Positions 44,731-54,857 of a stretch of DNA of 64,000 nt are shown in pieces. Position 1 is the first letter of the stretch; every line of letters starts with the position of its first letter. The translations under genes were made by a program, and so were the position numbers. This stretch comes from Gammaproteobacteria bacterium. GTDB lineage: Bacteria > Pseudomonadota > Gammaproteobacteria > RBG-16-57-12. The stretch lies in contig JAFLJP010000122.1 of NCBI GenBank assembly GCA_022712945.1, positions 1,853 to 65,852 on the forward strand, in the 5' to 3' direction. A model generated the notes under the pieces. The model had not been told where the DNA came from. It saw nothing but the letters and a program-made list of their open reading frames with translations, and searched no databases.

Positions 44731-44898
44731 ATGGCTAAGTCTGTACGCGAAAAAATTCGCTTGGTTTCAAGCGCGGGTACCGGTCACTTCTACACAACGA
44801 CCAAAAACAAGCGCAACAACCCAGAAAAAATGGAATGCAACAAATATGATCCTACCATCCGTCAACATGTGATGTACAAGGAAGCGAAGATTAAGTAA
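44731..44898 (+). CDS. rpmG: 50S ribosomal protein L33 (55 aa; below ORF-track cutoff)
   Basis: Hand translation [55 protein letters not shown] matches L33; RBS aaggag before the ATG. Confidence 0.9.
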
Positions 44899-44912
44899 TT
44901 AACCTTCAAAAA

Positions 44913-44936
44913 GCCCAGCTAAATGCTGGGCTTTTA
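44913..44936 (+). terminator. rho-independent terminator of rpmB-rpmG
   Basis: GCCCAGC-taaat-GCTGGGC followed by TTTTT. Confidence 0.7.
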
Positions 44937-45049: not shown

Positions 45050-45610
45050 ATGAAACTGCGCACCCTAACCACTGCAATTGTTTTTGCTGTCACGGGTCAT
45101 GCCCATGCGGCGACTGTTGATGTTGCCCTGAGTGATGAGAGTGCCCGCTTTGCACTCAGCTCCTTTGTTGGTGGCTTTTCTGAGGGACGTACCATCATGA
45201 GCAGCAGCCTGTTTTATAATACCGAAAACGACGGTGTTGTGAGTGCAGGCCTGCATATGATTGATGTTGTGGGTAGTAAAACACCGGGTTTGCAGGTTGG
45301 TGTTGGTTTTCAGGCCTACTACTCTCACCTGACTGATCATGATGGTATCGCGCTCGCACTGGGTGGTGTTATCAGTTACCGCGCACCGCAACTGCAACGT
45401 GTTAACTTTGTTATTCATGGTCACCATGCGCCAAGCATTACCAGCTATATGGATAGCGAGCGACTGAGTGAGTATGGAGTTTCCATTGAATATTCCCTAC
45501 TACCCCAAGCGGACATCTACATTGGCTATCGCAAAATTGAAGTCGATGATCAGGGCCTGACACTTGAGATGGATGACAGTGGCCACATCGGGCTGCGCAT
45601 AACTTTCTAA
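45050..45610 (+). CDS. small outer-membrane beta-barrel protein (first gene of envelope operon)
   Basis: Signal peptide ...GHAHA/AT; alternating amphipathic beta-strand pattern; C-terminal aromatic residue (..GLRITF). Confidence 0.5.
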   Translation: MKLRTLTTAIVFAVTGHAHAATVDVALSDESARFALSSFVGGFSEGRTIMSSSLFYNTENDGVVSAGLHMIDVVGSKTPGLQVGVGFQAYYSHLTDHDGIALALGGVISYRAPQLQRVNFVIHGHHAPSITSYMDSERLSEYGVSIEYSLLPQADIYIGYRKIEVDDQGLTLEMDDSGHIGLRITF

Positions 45611-46176
45611 TGCCATTAGGGATATTGAATGTGAAATATAACTACCTCATTTTAATCCTAATTCTTTCCCTGGCTAGCAGCACCTGCTGGGCGGAAGAGC
45701 TCAATACCCAGGAGCAATTTAAAAGCCTGGATAATCGAATTCAGAATCTAAAACGCTCGGCAGTGGAGCTGGGCAAAGAGATTGCGATATTGGAAGAGGA
45801 GCTACTGTTTCCTGCCAATACGCAATATGGTCTCTACCTCTCCATGGATACGGATGAGACTTATAAATTGATTACGGTTATCGTCAAACTGGATGGTAAC
45901 GTGGTCAATAATTACATGTATGACGTTAGCGAGTTGAATGCTCTCTCTAATGGGGCGGTTCACCAGTTGCATAAGGGCAATTTAAAAACCGGTAAACACA
46001 CCCTCAGCATCACCTATATGGGCAAGGTCGGTTCACGTATGACACGGCTAACCAATACCCACGAGTTTGAAAAAGGTAATAAGCCGGTCTTTATTGAACT
46101 GAACCTCAGCGGTAAAGAGCTAGGGAAATTTGGCAAAGCGAAAGAGCCGACCATTAACGTGAAGCAGTGGAGCTAA
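45610..46176 (+). CDS. secreted coiled-coil protein
   Basis: Signal peptide; heptad-rich stretch LNTQEQFKSLDNRIQNLKRSAVELGKEIAILEEELL; start overlaps upstream stop (TAATG). Confidence 0.4.
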   Translation: MPLGILNVKYNYLILILILSLASSTCWAEELNTQEQFKSLDNRIQNLKRSAVELGKEIAILEEELLFPANTQYGLYLSMDTDETYKLITVIVKLDGNVVNNYMYDVSELNALSNGAVHQLHKGNLKTGKHTLSITYMGKVGSRMTRLTNTHEFEKGNKPVFIELNLSGKELGKFGKAKEPTINVKQWS

Positions 46177-46192
46177 GTTAGTTTTTTCAGCT

Positions 46193-48043
46193 ATGACCAT
46201 TGTTAGCCGATTTTTCAGCCTCTCTCTCATCAGTCTCTGGTGCTGCGGTATCCTTGTCGCGGGCACCGAGGTGAAGTGGAAAAATGTTAAAGACCCTATT
46301 CTGGGTGATGCACTCTTCCACCTCTATCAAGATAAAAACTTAAGTGGCATCATTCAGCTCTCTGCTGACCGACAACTTGGCCGGGTAAAGCTTCAGAAAG
46401 AGGAGGCGGAGTTAGCGCTTACCATGCTTAATCTCGCTTATGGATTGCACCGGGAAGCTGCCAGCAACCTAGTGACAATCCAAAAGCGCGGTAACATCAA
46501 TAAAGATATCAGCAATCATATTTGGTTCTATATCGCAAAAATCCGCTATCAGCGTGGCTATTTTGCTATGGCTGAGAGCGCTCTCTCGCAGATCAGCGGG
46601 GCACTTCCCTGGGAGCTGGAGCAGGATTTACAGCTTTTCATGGCGCTGTTGCTGATGGATAGAGGCGAGTTTTTACCTGCCAGTAAAGTGCTCGACCAGA
46701 TAAAAGGTAATACCGGTGCCGTACCATTTGCTCGCTTCAACAGTGCCGTTAGCTTGGTGCAAAATGAGGAGGTGGAGAAGGCGCTGGCAACCTTGCAGCG
46801 CGTTTCTGATATCAAGTTCACTACCGAGCAAGAGAAATACCTGCGTGACAGAGCCAATATCTACCTCGGCTATTATCAGCTTCTCGAAGAGAAAAACCCG
46901 GAAAAATCGATCGCCTATTTTGAAAAAGTACACCTCTATGGCGTAGAGTCTAACGAGGCACTGCTTGGCTTGGGTTGGGCTCACTATGCACTTGAGCAAT
47001 ACGAACAAGCATTGGTCTCCTGGGCGGAGTTGTCCACCCGTAACGCCTCAGACCCCAATGTGCAAGAGGCGATGGTCGCAGTCCCGTTTACACTGGCAAA
47101 GAACAAAAGCTACGCAAGCTCTGCCGATCTTTATAACCGTGCTCTGGATACCTTTCATGCTGAAGTTAAAAATATTGATAACACCATTATCTCGGTAAAG
47201 AAGGGGGCTTTTTTCGATAAGCTGTTGACGGATATCAGTGAGGGTGAAAAAGGTTGGAATGGTGATGTCTACTCACTGCCCAAAAGTAGAGAGAGTTACT
47301 ATTTCACCCAAATGCTGGCTCGCCATGATTATCAGGAGGCGCTGAAAAACTACCGTGACCTTCGCTACCTGCAAAGTAAACTCAATGACTGGCGTCATGA
47401 TCTGGAGACCTTTGATGACACCAACCACTACTGGATAGACAATCTTCTAAACCGAGCCAAAAACTTTGCTCAACAATCGTTTGAGCAGACGGCCTCACAA
47501 CTAAAAAACACCCGTGTACAATTGATGTCTCAGTTAGCCGAAATAGAGGCCAGTCAGGATGCGATGGCCCTTGCCAGCGGCAAAGAGCAGCGTCAGTTGG
47601 CCAAAGTGGTCGAGTTGAAGGCGTCACTAGAGCTCGGTGCCAGCCGCAACCCAAACGCAAAGCAGCAACGTCGCCAACTCAGTTTGATGGAGCGACAGAT
47701 ACTCTGGGGTATTCACAGTCGTTTCAGCTCGCGTTTACGAAAAGCAAAGCAGGGTCTCGATGAGGTGGTTAGCAGTATTGAACAATCCTCAAAACGTAAC
47801 CAAGCGCTGGGTGGTGTGGTTGCCCAAGCAGTCGCCCATGCCCGTACCTTTGATGGCAGGATCAGCCAGACTAACGGCAAAATTAATGGCTTACAGCCGC
47901 AGATTTCACACGCAATTAAAGAGACCGAAGCTCATCTGATCAATATCGCCGTGGTTGCTCTGGAAGAGCGCCGAACCCAGTTAAAAGCCTTTATTGCACA
48001 AGTGTCATTCTCCGTTGGTGCCTCTTACGACGGGGGGCAATAG
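46193..48043 (+). CDS. secreted TPR-like helical-repeat protein with C-terminal coiled coil
   Basis: Signal peptide; repeated helix-turn-helix pairs with TPR-like W/Y/A spacing (e.g. EALLGLGWAHYALEQYEQALVSWAEL). Confidence 0.55.
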   Translation: MTIVSRFFSLSLISLWCCGILVAGTEVKWKNVKDPILGDALFHLYQDKNLSGIIQLSADRQLGRVKLQKEEAELALTMLNLAYGLHREAASNLVTIQKRGNINKDISNHIWFYIAKIRYQRGYFAMAESALSQISGALPWELEQDLQLFMALLLMDRGEFLPASKVLDQIKGNTGAVPFARFNSAVSLVQNEEVEKALATLQRVSDIKFTTEQEKYLRDRANIYLGYYQLLEEKNPEKSIAYFEKVHLYGVESNEALLGLGWAHYALEQYEQALVSWAELSTRNASDPNVQEAMVAVPFTLAKNKSYASSADLYNRALDTFHAEVKNIDNTIISVKKGAFFDKLLTDISEGEKGWNGDVYSLPKSRESYYFTQMLARHDYQEALKNYRDLRYLQSKLNDWRHDLETFDDTNHYWIDNLLNRAKNFAQQSFEQTASQLKNTRVQLMSQLAEIEASQDAMALASGKEQRQLAKVVELKASLELGASRNPNAKQQRRQLSLMERQILWGIHSRFSSRLRKAKQGLDEVVSSIEQSSKRNQALGGVVAQAVAHARTFDGRISQTNGKINGLQPQISHAIKETEAHLINIAVVALEERRTQLKAFIAQVSFSVGASYDGGQ

Positions 48044-48045
48044 TC

Positions 48046-50877
48046 ATGGTTTTACGATGGGTGCTCACCGGGCTACTGTTGCTCAATATATCAACCGTTT
48101 CTGCAAAACCAGATGCTAGCGAAATGACGCTGAAGGAGTTGCGTGATCGCAGCTACACAATAGAAGAGGATGCCCGGCCTGAGCAGGCGCTTAAGCGCTC
48201 CACTCAGGGTTATCAACTCTTTTTAGACTCCCCTCTTGGCGGTGCCATGCGCCGGGAATCTTTGCGCCGTATCGCTGACCGAATGCAGCAGCAACTGGAA
48301 GAAGAGGAGGAGCGAATGGTCTCTGGTACCGAGCTTGAAGAAGAGAGATTTTTTCTCAAAGATGCCAGTTATGAGAAAGCGATTCAACATTACAACGAGG
48401 CGGTTGATAACTACCCCGACTTTCCTGGTAATGAACATATCTATTACCAACTGGCGCGTGCCTATGAAGCCAATGGTGAGCCCAAACAGGCGATCTGGGC
48501 ACTGAAGCGGCTGATTAAAGATCACAGTGATACGGACTATATTGATGAGACCCACTTCCGTGTTGCAGAACTGAGCTTCCTGACACAAAAATTCCCCCAG
48601 GCAACTGCGCACTACAATGAATTGATCAAGCAGGGTGCCGAGAACCAGTATTACCGCGTTGCCCTGTATAAATCCGGCTGGTCACTGTTTAAAAATAAGG
48701 ATTACAAAGAGTCCCTTGATCAGTTTATTGAGCTGCTTGACCACATGATGCTTGATGTCACTCTGGAAGATATGCTGGCCGAGCTTCCCCAATACACCAT
48801 CGGTGAGCGGGAGATGATCAAAGATACGTTACGAGTCATGAGTATCGCGATCACTCATCAGGAAGAGCCCCTGGGTTATATGGAGAGTTATCTGGCGGGT
48901 TTGACGGAACTACGCGCCTATGAATTTATGGTCTATCAGGCGCTGGGCGATATGTACCACTACCAAGAGCTCTACCAGGATGCTGCCGGGGTCTATGCCG
49001 CATTTGCCCAGCAGCAGTCACTGCACCCCCAAGCCCCTTTCTTCCAAATCATGGCGATTGAGACCTACCGCAAAGGGCGTTTTAGCGAACTTCAAGATAA
49101 AGCGATTCGACACTTTTCCAGCAGCTTTGGTTACCAGGCCGCTTTTTGGGGAGTCGCACAGCCGACAAAACTAAAACAGCAACTTGAGCCCTACCTTCGC
49201 CAGCATCTCTCACGCCTGGCCCTTAAGCACCACGCAGCGCTGCAGAAAAAGGGGACTGAAATAAATAAACAACAGGCGCTTCACTGGTACCGTGCCTATC
49301 TCGACTCCTTTTCAAAAGATAGTGAAGCGGCACACATAAACTTCCTGTTAGCTGAGTTACTATTTGAAGTCGGTGATTACAAAGCCGCCGCTATTGAATA
49401 CAACCGAACAGCTTATGACTACGGTCGCCATCCTGAGTCTCAGGAGTCGGGTTACGCCGCTATTCTTGCTTTTGATAAGCAGAGGAAGGGGCTAGCCGGA
49501 GAAGAGCTGGATACATGGCGTCGGCAGTCGCTGGAAAATGCACTGCATTTTGCCAAAGTTTTTAGTGATGACGAGCGTGTGCCCAGTGTGATCACCAAAA
49601 CGGCGCAAGACCTGTTTGAAGTCGGTGCTTATGACACGGCCATTAAAGCTGCCAGCATCATCCTGACCTTAAGAGGGTTAACGCCGAAGAAACAGCGTAG
49701 TGCCTACCTGGTGATCGGCCACTCCTATTTTGAAAAGGAAGACTACCCCCGAGCTGAAAGTGCCTATCAATCTGCCCTGCGTCTTATGGAAAAAAGGGAC
49801 AGTGATTACAATGGTACCTACGAGCGCATTGCAGCCGCCATCTACAAACAGGCTGAGCACCAGCAGAAAAGTGGCAACCTGCAAGCGGCAGTACGTGAAT
49901 ACCAGCGTTTGATTGTGGTGGCCCCGCTTAGCAAAATCCGTGATACTACCGAGTTCGATACGGCAACCGCACTGTTACAGTTGAAGCAGTGGCAGGGTGC
50001 AATCGATATTCTGGTGAAAATGCGTAGAACCATTTTTGGCAAAAAACACGCCATGGATATCACCCAAAAACTGACGGTTGCCTATCTAGAAACGGATCAG
50101 AATCAGAATGCTGCCGCAGAGCTTGAAACATTGGCACTTCTGGCACCTGATTATGATATTCAACGGGAAGCGGTTTGGCGTGCAGCGGAACTCTATGAAA
50201 AAGAGGGCAATATTCTGGCGACAATCAAGGCGTTTGAAGATTATGTAAAACGTTACCCAAGCCCCGTTGATGCAAATGTTGAAGCGCGCTATAAATTGTC
50301 GCAGCTATACCAAGGGCAGAATAATCAACGCCTGCAGATCGCACGCTTGAAAGATGTTATCAGCGTCGACGCCAAAGCACTTGAGCAGCGTACTTCGCGA
50401 ACAAAGTACCTCGCCGGCATTTCAGCGTTAACATTGGCAGACCTTGCCAATGACGAGTACAAAAGCATTAAATTGGTTGAGCCGATCAAGAAAAACCTGA
50501 AACGCAAAAAAGATCAGATGCAGAAGGTGATAAAGGATTATGGCAGTGTATCTGAATATGCGATTGCCGAGCTAATCACCAATGCAACCTTCAAGATTGC
50601 TGAAATTTATCGTGATTTTTCACAGGCACTGATGGAATCCGATCGACCAAAAGGGCTCGACACGGATGAGCTTGAGATGTACGACATCATGCTTGAGGAG
50701 CAAGCTTTCCCGTTTGAAGAGAAAGCGATTGATCTGCACGAGAAAAATTATCACCGCATCAACGATGGCGTCTTTGATCTGTGGGTGAAAAACAGCTTGA
50801 ATGTACTTGGCACCATTAATCCAGGGCGTTACGACAAGTCAGAAAATGAGGTGGGCTACATTGAAATATTCAACTAG
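48046..50877 (+). CDS. large secreted TPR-repeat protein
   Basis: Signal peptide ..TVSA/KP; multiple canonical TPR units (AIQHYNEAVDNYPDFPGNEHIYYQLARAYEANGEPKQAIWALKRLIKDH...). Confidence 0.65.
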   Translation: MVLRWVLTGLLLLNISTVSAKPDASEMTLKELRDRSYTIEEDARPEQALKRSTQGYQLFLDSPLGGAMRRESLRRIADRMQQQLEEEEERMVSGTELEEERFFLKDASYEKAIQHYNEAVDNYPDFPGNEHIYYQLARAYEANGEPKQAIWALKRLIKDHSDTDYIDETHFRVAELSFLTQKFPQATAHYNELIKQGAENQYYRVALYKSGWSLFKNKDYKESLDQFIELLDHMMLDVTLEDMLAELPQYTIGEREMIKDTLRVMSIAITHQEEPLGYMESYLAGLTELRAYEFMVYQALGDMYHYQELYQDAAGVYAAFAQQQSLHPQAPFFQIMAIETYRKGRFSELQDKAIRHFSSSFGYQAAFWGVAQPTKLKQQLEPYLRQHLSRLALKHHAALQKKGTEINKQQALHWYRAYLDSFSKDSEAAHINFLLAELLFEVGDYKAAAIEYNRTAYDYGRHPESQESGYAAILAFDKQRKGLAGEELDTWRRQSLENALHFAKVFSDDERVPSVITKTAQDLFEVGAYDTAIKAASIILTLRGLTPKKQRSAYLVIGHSYFEKEDYPRAESAYQSALRLMEKRDSDYNGTYERIAAAIYKQAEHQQKSGNLQAAVREYQRLIVVAPLSKIRDTTEFDTATALLQLKQWQGAIDILVKMRRTIFGKKHAMDITQKLTVAYLETDQNQNAAAELETLALLAPDYDIQREAVWRAAELYEKEGNILATIKAFEDYVKRYPSPVDANVEARYKLSQLYQGQNNQRLQIARLKDVISVDAKALEQRTSRTKYLAGISALTLADLANDEYKSIKLVEPIKKNLKRKKDQMQKVIKDYGSVSEYAIAELITNATFKIAEIYRDFSQALMESDRPKGLDTDELEMYDIMLEEQAFPFEEKAIDLHEKNYHRINDGVFDLWVKNSLNVLGTINPGRYDKSENEVGYIEIFN

Positions 50878-51475
50878 TAAAGGCCTGGCAATCCTGCTTG
50901 CTCTTATTCTGCTCTCTGGTTGTGCCAGCAAGCCCGCACCAAAAGCAGTGATTATTCAGTCGGAGGATAGCAGTAAAGAAGAGCAGCTGCGGCTGGATAC
51001 TGCGGGTAAAGCATTCTCCCAGGCACTCAAAGAGCTTAACGAAAAAGAGTTTGAAAAGGCGCGAGACATTCTCACCAGCCTGGCACGTCAATACCCTGAA
51101 TATGCGGGTATTTATGCCAATCTTGGTATTGCACAGATGAACTTAAATGAAGACGAAGAGGCGCAAAAGTCATTTCAAGCAGCCTTGGAGCACAAAGAAA
51201 ACTTCCCCCAGGTTTATAATCAGCTCGGTTTGCTTCATCGCCAGCATGGTCGCTTTAAAGAGGCAGAAGTGGTCTACAAAAAAGCGATTGAACTCGACCC
51301 TGAATATGCCGATGCACACCGTAATCTGGGCATTCTTTATGACCTCTATTTGATGGATCTCACAAATGCGCTTCAGCATTACGTGAAATATAAAGAACTG
51401 GCGAACCCCGCCGAAAAAGACCCCATACATAAGTGGATCATTGATTTAACAAATCGAACAAATCCCGTAAGATAG
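50861..51475 (+). CDS. TPR-repeat lipoprotein
   Basis: TTG start preceded by GAGGTG RBS gives MKYSTSKGLAILLALILLSGC (lipobox LSGC); three TPR units (AGIYANLGIAQMNL..., VYNQLGLLHRQHGRFKEAEVVYKKAIELDPEYADAHRNLGILY). Confidence 0.65.
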   Translation: MKYSTSKGLAILLALILLSGCASKPAPKAVIIQSEDSSKEEQLRLDTAGKAFSQALKELNEKEFEKARDILTSLARQYPEYAGIYANLGIAQMNLNEDEEAQKSFQAALEHKENFPQVYNQLGLLHRQHGRFKEAEVVYKKAIELDPEYADAHRNLGILYDLYLMDLTNALQHYVKYKELANPAEKDPIHKWIIDLTNRTNPVR

Positions 51476-51479
51476 CACT

Positions 51480-51767
51480 ATGTTAAAAATGATCGCCCCA
51501 TTGTTGTTGAGCCTCGGACTGCTGACCGCCACGGCCAGTCAGGCTGAAGTGCGGTTGGATCTTGATGCAACATCGATTATAGGCAATCGTGAACTGCCAA
51601 GGATTGTCTACCTGATCGCCTGGCGTGATGCGCCCGAGGGCGACATTCTCGAACAATCGCTTGATATTAACCATGATAATAAAATGGTTCCGTTGGACCG
51701 TGATGTATTTCAGCGCCAAATTAGCTATCACGACCTGCTGTTTGGTGTTGATAAGAGTAAAAAATAA
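51480..51767 (+). CDS. small secreted protein
   Basis: Signal peptide ..ATASQA/EV; no recognisable family. Confidence 0.4.
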   Translation: MLKMIAPLLLSLGLLTATASQAEVRLDLDATSIIGNRELPRIVYLIAWRDAPEGDILEQSLDINHDNKMVPLDRDVFQRQISYHDLLFGVDKSKK

Positions 51768-51819
51768 TTCCCGTTTTTCAAAAATTAGAAATTAATGTTA
51801 TTTGAGTGAGGAGCTTGTT

Positions 51820-52461
51820 ATGGATACTATTATTCGTTTTTTCCAGGAAGGGGGGGTTTTTATGTACCCAATCACCCTTATCTTGGCACTGGGCATGGCG
51901 ATTGCCTTGGAGCGCTACCTCTTTCTGAGCAGCGCCAAATCGAAAAATAATAAAACCTGGAACCAGCTGATACCCCTGATCAACCAAGGTGATATCGTAG
52001 CGGCGGCCAAAGTGGTGGAAAAGACCAAATCACATATCGGCCATGTGGTTGCTTACGGCCTCAATCAACGCAAAACATCGAAACACCGTGAAGATATTGA
52101 GACGGCGATGGAAGAGGGTTTGATGGAGGTTCTCCCCAAGCTTGAAAAACGCACACACTATGTTGCCACTTACGCCAACATCGCCACGTTGATGGGGCTG
52201 CTGGGAACCATCATCGGTCTGATTCAGGCCTTTACCGCCGTTGCTAATGCAGACCCGGCTGAGAAGGCAAACCTGCTCTCCGCCTCGATTTCGGTCGCCA
52301 TGAATACCACCGCCTATGGTTTGATTGCCGCAATTCCCTTGCTGCTGATGTTCGCGCTACTACAGACCAAAACCACCGAGGTTGTTGATAGCCTTGAGAT
52401 GGCATCTGTCAAAATCGTTAACCTGATTAGTGGTGAAAACAGCAAGAATGGAAATGCATAG
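51820..52461 (+). CDS. MotA/TolQ/ExbB family proton-channel protein
   Basis: Three TM helices; ExbB/TolQ signature NTTAYGLIAAIPLLLMF; RBS gaggag before ATG at 51820. Confidence 0.85.
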   Translation: MDTIIRFFQEGGVFMYPITLILALGMAIALERYLFLSSAKSKNNKTWNQLIPLINQGDIVAAAKVVEKTKSHIGHVVAYGLNQRKTSKHREDIETAMEEGLMEVLPKLEKRTHYVATYANIATLMGLLGTIIGLIQAFTAVANADPAEKANLLSASISVAMNTTAYGLIAAIPLLLMFALLQTKTTEVVDSLEMASVKIVNLISGENSKNGNA

Positions 52462-52463
52462 CA

Positions 52464-52973
52464 ATGAGCATTCGCAACCGCCGTCATAAACAAGAAGTTC
52501 CGGAACTCGATGTAACCGCCTTCCTCAACTTGATGGTGGTATTGATACCGTTTCTACTGGTCAGTGCTGTCTTTACCCAGATCACCGTGATCGAGCTCAA
52601 TATGCCGCCTCCTTCTGATGAAGCTCAGCAGGAGAAGGATAAAAAAGAGAAGCTTGATCTGGAGATTGTGATTCGCGCAGCAACCATCGAAATACATGGT
52701 GGCAAAACGGGTCTGTTGAAGCGCTACAAGATGAACGAGGGTCAATTTGACTACGCAGAAATATCCACTTACCTGCAAGAGATCAAGCGCCGTTATGCAC
52801 AAGAGACCACCTCTATGATTCTGGTAGAGCCCGAAATTAACTACGATACCCTCGTGCAAGTGATGGACACTGTGCGCCTGTTTGAATTTGAAGAGGATGG
52901 TGGCCTAATACAGGCTGAACTGTTCCCCGACATGTCAATCGGTGACGCACCCATACTTGGCAAAGGTAAGTAA
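52464..52973 (+). CDS. ExbD/TolR family biopolymer transport protein (paralog 1)
   Basis: Single N-terminal TM helix with ExbD motif LDVTAFLNLMVVLIPFLL, periplasmic domain. Confidence 0.85.
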   Translation: MSIRNRRHKQEVPELDVTAFLNLMVVLIPFLLVSAVFTQITVIELNMPPPSDEAQQEKDKKEKLDLEIVIRAATIEIHGGKTGLLKRYKMNEGQFDYAEISTYLQEIKRRYAQETTSMILVEPEINYDTLVQVMDTVRLFEFEEDGGLIQAELFPDMSIGDAPILGKGK

Positions 52974-52984
52974 AGGCGTACTTA

Positions 52985-53491
52985 ATGAAGATGTCACGTC
53001 GAGCAAAACGTATGGAAAAGAGCCATAAGCGGAGCAAAGGTGCTTCGCTGAATATGGTCTCATTGATGGACATATTTACCATCCTTGTCTTCTTCCTACT
53101 TGTTAACTCATCTGATGTACAGTTGACACAAAACGAAAAGGTTCAGCTACCTGAATCGAAAGCGAACCAGGTACCCGCAGCGACACTGGTGATCATGATC
53201 AGCAATGATCAGGTGTTGGTGCAGGGGCGCCTTATTGCCACCGTTGATGAGATCATGGCAATCAAAGGCAACATTATTCCTGCGCTCAAAGAGGAGTTGA
53301 AGATTCAGTCCGATAACAGCCTGAGACAACTTTCAGAGAGTGAGCTGCGAGAGATGGGCCGCCCGATAACCATTATGGGGAATAAAGAAATCCCCTATCA
53401 GTTGCTGAAAAAAATCATGTTCACCAGCTCCAAGAGTAATTACAGCAACATCTCACTTGCCGTGTTGAAAAAAACTGAAGGCGAGGGGTAG
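52985..53491 (+). CDS. ExbD/TolR family biopolymer transport protein (paralog 2)
   Basis: N-terminal basic region, TM helix with SLMDIFTILVFFLL, periplasmic domain. Confidence 0.85.
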   Translation: MKMSRRAKRMEKSHKRSKGASLNMVSLMDIFTILVFFLLVNSSDVQLTQNEKVQLPESKANQVPAATLVIMISNDQVLVQGRLIATVDEIMAIKGNIIPALKEELKIQSDNSLRQLSESELREMGRPITIMGNKEIPYQLLKKIMFTSSKSNYSNISLAVLKKTEGEG

Positions 53492-53497
53492 CACGAA

Positions 53498-54430
53498 ATG
53501 AATAAACAGCCCCTGAACCCCAAGATTTTTTATGATTACAGCGACCAACGCCTTCGGGTGATTGCGGTCATCATGATGCTCTCTTTTCTGGCAGCCAATA
53601 TCACCTTTAACTTCATGGCAGTTCCTGAAATTGATCGTAAGGCGGCCAGTGAGTTGCCACCGCGCCTTACTAAAATGATGTTGGAAAAGCGCACACCGCC
53701 ACCACCGCCACCTAAAGAAGAGAAGAAGGAAGAAGAGAAGCCAAAGGAAGAGGAAAAACCGAAAGAAGAGCCAAAGAAAGAAGAAAAGAAGCCAGAACCG
53801 AAAAAAGAGGAGCCTAAAAAGCGTAGCGAAGAAGAGATACGCGAAAAAGTCCAAAATACCGGTATTCTGGCGATGATGGATGATCTTGCCGACCTGCGTG
53901 ATGAGTCACTCTTTGAGGGGCTGGATACCGACAATGCCTTGCTCAACACCCCGGTAGAGAGTGCGATGTCGAAAGAACGTTCACTGATTACCTCTAATGC
54001 GATGAGGGGGAGTGGTGGCATCAACACCGCGAGTCTCAGCCGCAGCACCGGCGGTGCTACCCGACTAGCGGGACGTGATGTCACCAAAGTTGACAGCCCG
54101 GTTGACGATGTGGCCCCGATGGAGGATGACAAGAAGGCCTCTGTGCGTAGCCATGAAGAGATTGCACTGGTTATTGACCGCTACAAGAGTCGTCTGCTGG
54201 CCATCTACCAGCGGGCTCTACGTGAAGATCCCACCCTGCGTGGACAGGTGGTATTTGAGATGACCATTGAGCCATCGGGTAAAGTCACCATCGTCAACGT
54301 GCTATCGAGTGACCTCAAAAATGAGAGTCTGGAGAAAAAGCTGGCAACCCGGATCAAGATGTTTAAATTTGGTGCTAAGGATGCGGAAGTGATGATTGTC
54401 ACGGTGCCAATTGACTTCTATCCCTCTTGA
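53498..54430 (+). CDS. TonB-like energy transducer of the AgmX/PglI type (TM anchor, KE/P-rich spacer, TonB C-terminal domain)
   Basis: N-terminal TM helix lacking the canonical TonB SxxxH; PPPPPPKEEKKEEEKPKEEEKPKEEPKKEEKKPEPKKEEPKK spacer; C-terminal GQVVFEMTIEPSGKVTIVNVLSS... beta-alpha-beta TonB_C-like fold. Confidence 0.7.
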   Translation: MNKQPLNPKIFYDYSDQRLRVIAVIMMLSFLAANITFNFMAVPEIDRKAASELPPRLTKMMLEKRTPPPPPPKEEKKEEEKPKEEEKPKEEPKKEEKKPEPKKEEPKKRSEEEIREKVQNTGILAMMDDLADLRDESLFEGLDTDNALLNTPVESAMSKERSLITSNAMRGSGGINTASLSRSTGGATRLAGRDVTKVDSPVDDVAPMEDDKKASVRSHEEIALVIDRYKSRLLAIYQRALREDPTLRGQVVFEMTIEPSGKVTIVNVLSSDLKNESLEKKLATRIKMFKFGAKDAEVMIVTVPIDFYPS

Positions 54431-54455
54431 TATAGGTCTCGTAACGCAACAAAAT

Positions 54456-54478
54456 AAGCCCCGAAAGGGGCTTTTTTA
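54456..54478 (+). terminator. rho-independent terminator closing the 10-gene operon
   Basis: AAGCCCC-gaaa-GGGGCTT followed by TTTTTT. Confidence 0.75.
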
Positions 54479-54497: not shown

Positions 54498-54857
54498 CTA
54501 TTGACCTTTCTTGGGGTTTTCATCCTCTGCTTCAGTGCAATTCACCAGCAGGCGCATTCCGCCTTTGGTTAGAACGTCATTTATCCGCTCAAGAAACAGC
54601 ATCATCTTCTCATTGGGCAGATAGGCACAATTGAGCTGAAAGCGCACCTTGCAGTCATTGCGATCAGGAAACTCTTCCGCCAATTGTCCACCTGCAGCAA
54701 ATTCGACATATTTGCTCATCTTGTCTTGCAGCTCAGCAATGCGGGCATCAATATCACTCCACTTTTCAGTGGCGTACATGATGAGTGCCATTTCATCGCT
54801 ATCGTGATCAAAAGCGACCTCGTCGATCACCTCTGGATTGTGAATGCCCCGTTCCAT
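54498..54857 (-). CDS. hypothetical acidic protein
   Basis: ORF only; no recognisable motif. Confidence 0.35.
   Translation of the reverse strand: MERGIHNPEVIDEVAFDHDSDEMALIMYATEKWSDIDARIAELQDKMSKYVEFAAGGQLAEEFPDRNDCKVRFQLNCAYLPNEKMMLFLERINDVLTKGGMRLLVNCTEAEDENPKKGQ

Follow-up and report, generated by a model that had tools for sequence, protein, structure and literature searches.

The envelope genes gltC, gltD, gltE, gltG, aglR, aglQ and aglS, together with one extra gene that lacks a homologue in the Myxococcales, were named a "core complex" by Luciano et al. (2011, PMC3169522), who found it in one cluster in several gammaproteobacteria as well as in Geobacter and one betaproteobacterium. 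They considered its function unknown and the complex insufficient for motility, and stated that most of the organisms that carry it are not known to glide. The core complex was restated by Wartel et al. (2013, PMC3858216), who suggested that it is a "basal transport machinery". Our literature search found no later paper that gives the core complex a function, and none by locus tag of the published clusters; a survey of periplasmic force transducers published in 2025 leaves it out. Here we describe an array of genes at positions 45050-54430 on the + strand of a 64,000-nucleotide stretch of DNA ("the window") from a gammaproteobacterial contig (JAFLJP010000122.1), whose host is an uncultured relative of the Thiohalomonadales. 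A first-pass annotation, made from the sequence alone, had likened the array to an uncharacterised cluster that occurs in non-gliding proteobacteria, and such a cluster is indeed the one described in 2011. The operon is a further member of this known core-complex family, a system already on record since that year.

The array is tight and comprises ten co-directional open reading frames. The same ten genes, as the first-pass annotation had them, were called independently on the source contig (ENA ERZ14212212 NODE_12, 100.7 kb). We refer to them as g1 to g10, with protein lengths in amino acids (aa) and with TPR standing for tetratricopeptide repeat:

g1, 45050-45610, + strand: 186 aa, small outer-membrane beta-barrel of the YfaZ family.
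g2, 45610-46176, + strand: 188 aa, secreted protein; first gene of the conserved nine-gene unit.
g3, 46193-48043, + strand: 616 aa, secreted TPR protein in the GltC position.
g4, 48046-50877, + strand: 943 aa, secreted TPR scaffold in the GltD position.
g5, 50861-51475, + strand: 204 aa, TPR lipoprotein in the GltE position; likely start TTG 50861.
g6, 51480-51767, + strand: 95 aa, small secreted protein.
g7, 51820-52461, + strand: 213 aa, proton-channel subunit of the TolQ/ExbB/AglR type.
g8, 52464-52973, + strand: 169 aa, first TolR/ExbD-like subunit, in the AglQ position.
g9, 52985-53491, + strand: 168 aa, second TolR/ExbD-like subunit, in the AglS position.
g10, 53498-54430, + strand: 310 aa, TonB/TolA-like transducer of the GltG type.
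Intrinsic terminator, 54456-54478, both strands: 7 pairs (5 G-C) followed by a T-run.

Pfam matches bear out the parts that the first-pass annotation had named: a YfaZ barrel in g1 (34.8 bits against a gathering score of 23, residues 4-186), TPR repeats in all of g3, g4 and g5, MotA_ExbB in g7 (99.7 bits), and ExbD in g8 (58.3 bits) and g9 (60.4 bits). The lipobox of g5, the signal peptides, the spacer of g10 rich in Lys, Glu and Pro, and the lack of an SxxxH motif, all of which it had also reported, can be read directly in the translations.

From g3 to g10, the order of the genes is that of the published core complex, GltC-GltD-GltE-extra gene-AglR-AglQ-AglS-GltG, in a single cluster and in a gammaproteobacterium. 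The sizes are also close. The cluster Maqu_1602 to Maqu_1595, listed in Table S3 of the 2011 study (PMC3169522), encodes proteins of 550, 939, 162, -, 221, 176, 162 and 321 aa, the dash standing for the extra gene, and the window encodes 616, 943, 204, 95, 213, 169, 168 and 310 aa. The first-pass annotation had listed GltD, GltE and GltG as the Glt proteins of the core; the published core also has a GltC homologue, to which the 616-aa g3 corresponds. The window differs from the published description in two genes: g2, which stands ahead of the GltC-like gene in each of the 59 complete loci described below, is absent from the tables of the paper, and the lineage of the window adds a translationally coupled YfaZ barrel gene.

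Taken with the conservation of the array, this comparison suggests that the locus is one operon encoding an envelope-spanning machine of the Agl-Glt core-complex kind, driven by the proton-motive force and similar in type to Tol and Ton systems. We put the probability of this reading, together with the mechanism proposed below, at roughly three in four.

Conservation was assessed by scanning one genome per species with a seven-sequence alignment of g10, which yielded 80 loci. The nearest of these, at 75% identity, belongs to a metagenome-assembled genome of the Thiohalomonadales. All of g2 to g10 were found in 59 loci, and their order and strand are the same in every one; among the 60 loci with enough DNA upstream, 58 are complete. 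The arrangement is far beyond chance, given this identity of order and strand in 59 of 59 complete related loci. The conserved unit is the nine genes g2 to g10 (45610-54430). This modifies the ten-gene operon that had been claimed, since the barrel gene g1 was found by tblastn beside the cluster only in the closest relative (L001) and in the source contigs (L081-L083). g1 is a lineage-specific addition to the operon. The titles of the locus records include Woeseiaceae, Steroidobacteraceae, Chromatiaceae, Sedimenticolaceae, Thiodiazotropha and Ectothiorhodospiraceae, among others, and the layout recurs in the complete genome of Simiduia agarivorans. In one locus labelled Chromatiaceae (L020:8289-10867), ExbB-ExbD-ExbD-GltG-like genes are present with none of the TPR and small genes within 8 kb upstream. 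Motor and transducer genes standing alone in this way indicate that motor and scaffold can be unlinked, as they are in Myxococcus.

The transducer, g10, is the only protein with a strong direct profile tie to the Glt proteins of Myxococcus. Its C-terminal domain (residues 218-307) matches the AgmX/PglI model NF033768 at 68.7 bits, above the cut-off of 40; the first-pass annotation had named the absence of such a domain as grounds for refuting its claim. Against the GltG model (NF033760), g10 gives an E-value of 2.3e-13, with residues 19-305 placed on model positions 337-643 of 650. The protein consists of a short cytoplasmic N-terminus, one membrane helix, a spacer rich in Pro, Lys and Glu (residues ~66-113), a middle region with the conserved motifs LADLRD and GSGGINT..LSR, and the C-terminal domain. 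The membrane helix reads RLRVIAVIMMLSFLAANITFNFMAV; it contains no His and no SxxxH (S29-F-L-A-A), and is poorly conserved across relatives. An exhaustive search of cluster representatives found 291 relatives of g10 at E ≤ 1e-30. Some relatives (P0334, P0341, P0412 and P0420) are 450-670 aa long and carry an N-terminal extension of ~150-360 residues before the matched region. These long relatives appear to bridge the short form of the window and the extended cytoplasmic part of GltG in Myxococcus; the 2011 table (PMC3169522) lists Tgr7_0536 at 535 aa.

One TolQ/AglR-like gene and two different TolR-like genes, the motor set of the core complex, lie consecutively as g7, g8 and g9. The top NCBIfam match of g7 is TolQ (64.6 bits, cut-off 221), and its closest solved chains are TolQ (37 bits), then ExbB (31.5 bits), then MotA. 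Three membrane helices can be read from the sequence of g7, and its LLGT and NTT motifs are well conserved among relatives. TolR is the top NCBIfam match for both g8 and g9. The site of the proton-binding Asp25 of E. coli ExbD is occupied in g8 by Asn22 (alignment to 6tyi_Y: 'flNlm' over 'FIDVM'). At this site, 51 of 73 aligned sequences have Asn and 22 have Asp, and the Asp-bearing group takes in the Steroidobacteraceae loci. In g9, the transmembrane Asp29 (SLMDIF) is Asp in 75 of 75 aligned sequences. AglQ and AglS of Myxococcus, in contrast, have both been reported to carry the Asp. If g8 and g9 dimerise within a pentamer of g7, as in the model of AglR5QS, only one protonatable site would be left in most of these motors.

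For the three TPR proteins, the assignments as putative GltC, GltD and GltE are based on published phylogenomics and on synteny with Table S3 (PMC3169522). The secreted protein g3 has weak TPR matches in its N-terminal half; its C-terminal half, by eye, reads as helical or coiled-coil. It matches the GltC model at 24.4 bits (E-value 1.1e-5), and its size and position agree with those of the MXAN_2541 homologues in Table S3. In g4, Pfam finds TPR_16 at 56 bits along with other TPR matches, and its position is that of the MXAN_4870 homologues of 933-1016 aa in the same table. The lipoprotein g5 has the lipobox LLSGC, with Ala at +2, and matches TPR_11 (59 bits) and TPR_1 (56 bits). Neither g4 nor g6 has a GltD or GltF match in NCBIfam at E ≤ 10, in a library for which the presence of such models is itself uncertain.

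The two small secreted proteins of the unit, g2 and g6, have no family match in Pfam or NCBIfam. Structure prediction for g2, of good confidence (a pLDDT score of 84), gives a signal peptide, one long N-terminal helix (residues ~29-65) that ends in a conserved LEEELLFPANTQ motif, and a beta-sandwich (71-187); the matches to its fold in a structure search are generic. The AlphaFold2 model of g6 is mostly disordered (pLDDT 62), with one helix (74-88) besides the signal peptide. There are 69 relatives of g6, and the protein carries two conserved motifs. One is extended and reads T31-S-I-I-G-N-R-E-L-P-x-I/V-x-Y-L/I-x-x-W48. A reading of this motif as a TonB box was rejected, as by eye it did not fit the consensus of receptor TonB boxes, and we describe it only as strand-prone. 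The gltF gene of Myxococcus follows gltE in the MXAN_4870-4867 locus, as g6 follows g5. In the published model of the Myxococcus machine, GltF is mostly disordered; one of its strands pairs with the C-terminal domain of GltG, and its C-terminal helix enters GltC (PMC11761067). It is possible that g6 is the counterpart of GltF, which we propose by inference rather than from demonstrated homology. The 2011 study runs against this proposal, in that it confines GltF to the Myxococcales and Bdellovibrionales (PMC3169522). In Table S3, one locus tag is skipped between the homologues of GltE and AglR; g6 has that place and probably represents the "additional gene" of the published core.

How does the operon compare with the characterised machines of Myxococcus? 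It shares with the Agl-Glt gliding machinery and with its sporulation paralogue, Agl-Nfs, a TolQ-like and two TolR-like motor proteins, an AgmX/PglI transducer with a long linker, periplasmic and lipoprotein TPR partners, and a small disordered secreted protein encoded right after the GltE-like gene. Unlike the Myxococcus systems, the operon has no GltA, GltB or GltH barrels, no GltK, no CglB adhesin, and no GltI or GltJ. The motor genes lie inside the cluster in the window, whereas they form a separate locus in Myxococcus. In the published AlphaFold model of the Myxococcus machine, GltG wraps GltD, GltE binds GltD, and GltF bridges GltC and GltG (for GltF, PMC11761067); a two-hybrid interaction between AglR and GltG has also been published (PMC3169522).

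We propose a mechanism whose steps are modelled on solved ExbBD and TolQR structures and on that AlphaFold model. In the inner membrane, a pentamer of g7 would form around a heterodimer of g8 and g9. Proton flow by way of Asp29 of g9 would drive the motor and, with Asn in g8, only one subunit could bind a proton at that site. The helix of g10 would dock on g7, its spacer would cross the peptidoglycan, and its conserved middle region and C-terminal domain would bind the TPR scaffold g4. The lipoprotein g5, together with g3, would hold g4 under the outer membrane, and the GltF-like g6 could act as a disordered clamp between the C-terminal domain of g10 and g3. g2 would be an accessory. The YfaZ barrel g1, with its signal peptide (AHA|A) and its C-terminal Phe, may serve as an anchor in the outer membrane in the lineage of the window. 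The output would be a cyclic pull or a rotation exerted on an outer-membrane-associated complex.

Several observations weigh against this reading. The score of g10 against the GltG model is 49.6 bits, and the equivalog cut-off is 650; g10 also lacks the two cytoplasmic FHA domains of GltG, with only ~20 residues preceding its helix. SxxxH, which TonB and TolA use for motor binding, is absent, which makes the proposed docking of g10 on the motor tentative. The GltC model is matched by only one of 29 members of the g3 family, that of the window, and by none of its 28 relatives. In the NCBIfam scan, no Glt model is matched by g4 or by any of 25 relatives of g4. The match of g5 to the GltE model (37.4 bits, E-value 1.4e-9, cut-off 225) is below its match to the generic PilW model (53.6 bits) and to MamA. 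The likeness to the Agl-Glt core that had been claimed for the array thus stands for the AgmX/PglI domain, the motor genes and the gene order and sizes of Table S3, but the profile evidence for GltC, GltD and GltE is weak or absent. The motor could be altered or slower, given the Asn in g8. Outside the lineage of the window, no outer-membrane partner is conserved within the nine-gene unit. Finally, all mechanistic steps are by analogy.

An alternative explanation is that the operon encodes a second, divergent Tol-Pal-like system, which would tether or constrict the outer membrane in envelope integrity, division or vesiculation, with g4 as an enlarged CpoB/YbgF. The motor proteins are compatible with this, g7 being nearer to TolQ than to ExbB or MotA, and g8 and g9 both matching TolR best. 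The repeats of g4 are nearest to the YbgF/CpoB and BamD types: g4 itself scores 63.7 bits against tol_pal_ybgF, under the cut-off of 90.1, and in its family the YbgF and BamD models are matched by 25 of 25 members and CpoB by 19, the lowest E-value being 2e-37. Both systems have an extended linker in a single-pass transducer, and a review sets Agl-Glt and Tol-Pal side by side as contractile systems. However, neither Pfam nor NCBIfam finds a TolB beta-propeller, a Pal/OmpA domain or a YbgC thioesterase in any of the ten proteins. The C-terminal domain of g10 is of the AgmX/PglI type and not TolA domain III, as g10 scores 21.9 bits against the TolA model, under its cut-off of 59.45. Two different TolR paralogues and a transducer without SxxxH also set the window apart from Tol-Pal, and the nine-gene unit is conserved as such, with a content unlike that of tol-pal. 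We therefore consider a Tol-Pal-like system unlikely.

It is very unlikely, in our judgement, that the operon is an extra TonB system that energises TonB-dependent receptors encoded elsewhere, with TPR accessories as in the Vibrio TonB2/TtpC clusters. The order of the last four genes, ExbB-ExbD-ExbD-TonB-like, would suit such a system, as would a motor of the type solved as 5:2 in ExbBD and a transducer rich in Pro, Lys and Glu. Some relatives of g10 have a precomputed TonB_C (PF03544) match and are called "TonB family protein" by their sources. In the window, however, g10 has no match in the Pfam scan, TonB_C included, and it scores 23.2 bits against tonB_Cterm, under the cut-off of 27.1; a profile of its family finds TonB chains among solved structures at E-values of 0.2-0.5 only. 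The poor conservation of the g10 helix and its lack of SxxxH likewise speak against TonB. TtpC is a much larger member of the MotA_ExbB family, and the only member of that family in the cluster is g7, at 213 aa. Domain scans of the cluster found no TtpC-like protein and no receptor or Plug domain, and the TPR and two small genes are strictly linked to the motor genes, as obligatory partners, unlike in ordinary TonB systems. With no TolB, Pal, TtpC or TonB-dependent receptor domain in the cluster, the judgement of the first-pass annotation that this is neither a canonical TonB system nor Tol-Pal holds. A working gliding machine as in Myxococcus is extremely unlikely. Counterparts of GltA, B, H, I, J and K, which are found only in the Myxococcales and Bdellovibrionales (PMC3169522), are absent from the operon, in which the cytoplasmic platform was not looked for; g10 lacks the FHA domains; and the authors who defined the core complex regard it as insufficient for motility. 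The absence of the gliding-specific parts from the operon argues against gliding motility as its function. We also rejected Zorya-type anti-phage defence (ZorA with its long tail, plus ZorB, ZorC and ZorD): in a scan of the ten proteins against the PADLOC defence library, g7 gave a weak, generic match in the MotA region (20.5 bits) and the other nine proteins gave none.

What might a machine of the core-complex kind act on at the outer membrane? In related loci, the unit has recurrent neighbours. Just upstream of g2, 41 of 54 loci have a thioredoxin-like (Redoxin) gene. Of these loci, 24 have ApbE, mostly at a greater distance upstream; three of the 24 (L024, L027 and L039) have it downstream of g10, as does the incomplete L017. 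Five loci carry a DUF3570 barrel gene immediately upstream of g2, and a sixth, L057, carries one further upstream. One or more of the Redoxin, ApbE and DUF3570 genes occur in 48 of the 54 loci (for example L005:104-1879, L002:83-1972, L036:775-1980 and L085:662-1642). ApbE, DUF3570 and thioredoxin form a flavinylation-associated module in which DUF3570 is a demonstrated substrate of ApbE, and whose function is unknown (Méheust et al. 2021, PMC8238504). That ApbE can flank the cluster on either side, depending on the locus, may point to more than synteny by inheritance. Rather than a generic transport motor, the core complex could be the mechanical partner of this module, with a motor that has one protonatable subunit using the proton-motive force to act on an outer-membrane redox barrel, or on another barrel, such as YfaZ here, where the module is absent. 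We regard this idea as speculative and quite unlikely as it stands. The window contains none of the ApbE, DUF3570 and thioredoxin-like genes of the module. If true, the partnership would link energy from the inner membrane with redox chemistry at the outer one; we have not seen such a combination described.

The boundaries of the operon and the junctions within it are consistent with a single transcription unit, and most were correctly described before. Upstream, rpmB-rpmG ends at 44898, and the hairpin after which the array had been said to begin is visible in the sequence at 44910-44935; our consensus terminator scan missed this hairpin because its T-run is short. The g1 stop and g2 start overlap by 1 nt in TAATG at 45610, which argues that g1 is co-expressed with g2 here. 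Gaps of 2 nt separate 48043 from 48046 and 52461 from 52464, as reported, and the largest gap in the array is ≤52 nt. The 32-nt overlap claimed for g4 and g5 is more likely to be 17 nt. The candidate in-frame starts of g5 are 50801, 50846 and TTG 50861; only the last has a good Shine-Dalgarno-like sequence, GAGGTGG, 5 nt 5' of it, and translation from it gives a cleaner signal peptide (MKYSTSKGLAILLALILLSGC). TTG 50861, which is also where the independent gene calls begin g5, is therefore more likely to be the start than 50846. For g7, the independent gene calls make ATG 51820 the most likely start, with 51802 as the alternative. The strong terminator at 54456-54478 was found as claimed: the hairpin AAGCCCC-GAAA-GGGGCTT, followed by TTTTTATTT, is detected on either strand. 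It is bidirectional, closing the operon and serving the convergent gene at 54498-54857.

The convergent gene (- strand) encodes a 119-aa protein with a precomputed Pfam match to DUF6572. Beyond it lie a gene for a ComF-like phosphoribosyltransferase and then a biotin operon of the bioB-bioF-bioH/bioC-like type. The G+C content is 0.45-0.51 in the cluster and 0.47-0.56 in its flanks. We make no claim of horizontal transfer, as the cluster is only slightly under the flanks.

Two very different Myxococcus machines, for gliding and for the assembly of the spore coat, are presumed to descend from the core complex. This complex is a widespread motor whose function has been open since 2011, and cultured carriers have been known since then; carriers in culture include Marinobacter, Cellvibrio japonicus, Saccharophagus degradans and Simiduia agarivorans. 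The comparison made here offers several handles on that function: a fixed parts list of nine genes, which includes two easily overlooked small proteins; a candidate for GltF; the asymmetry between Asp and Asn in the two TolR-like subunits; and a recurrent neighbouring module. Finding the function of the core complex would show what role a third kind of Tol/Ton-like envelope motor plays in bacteria that do not glide.

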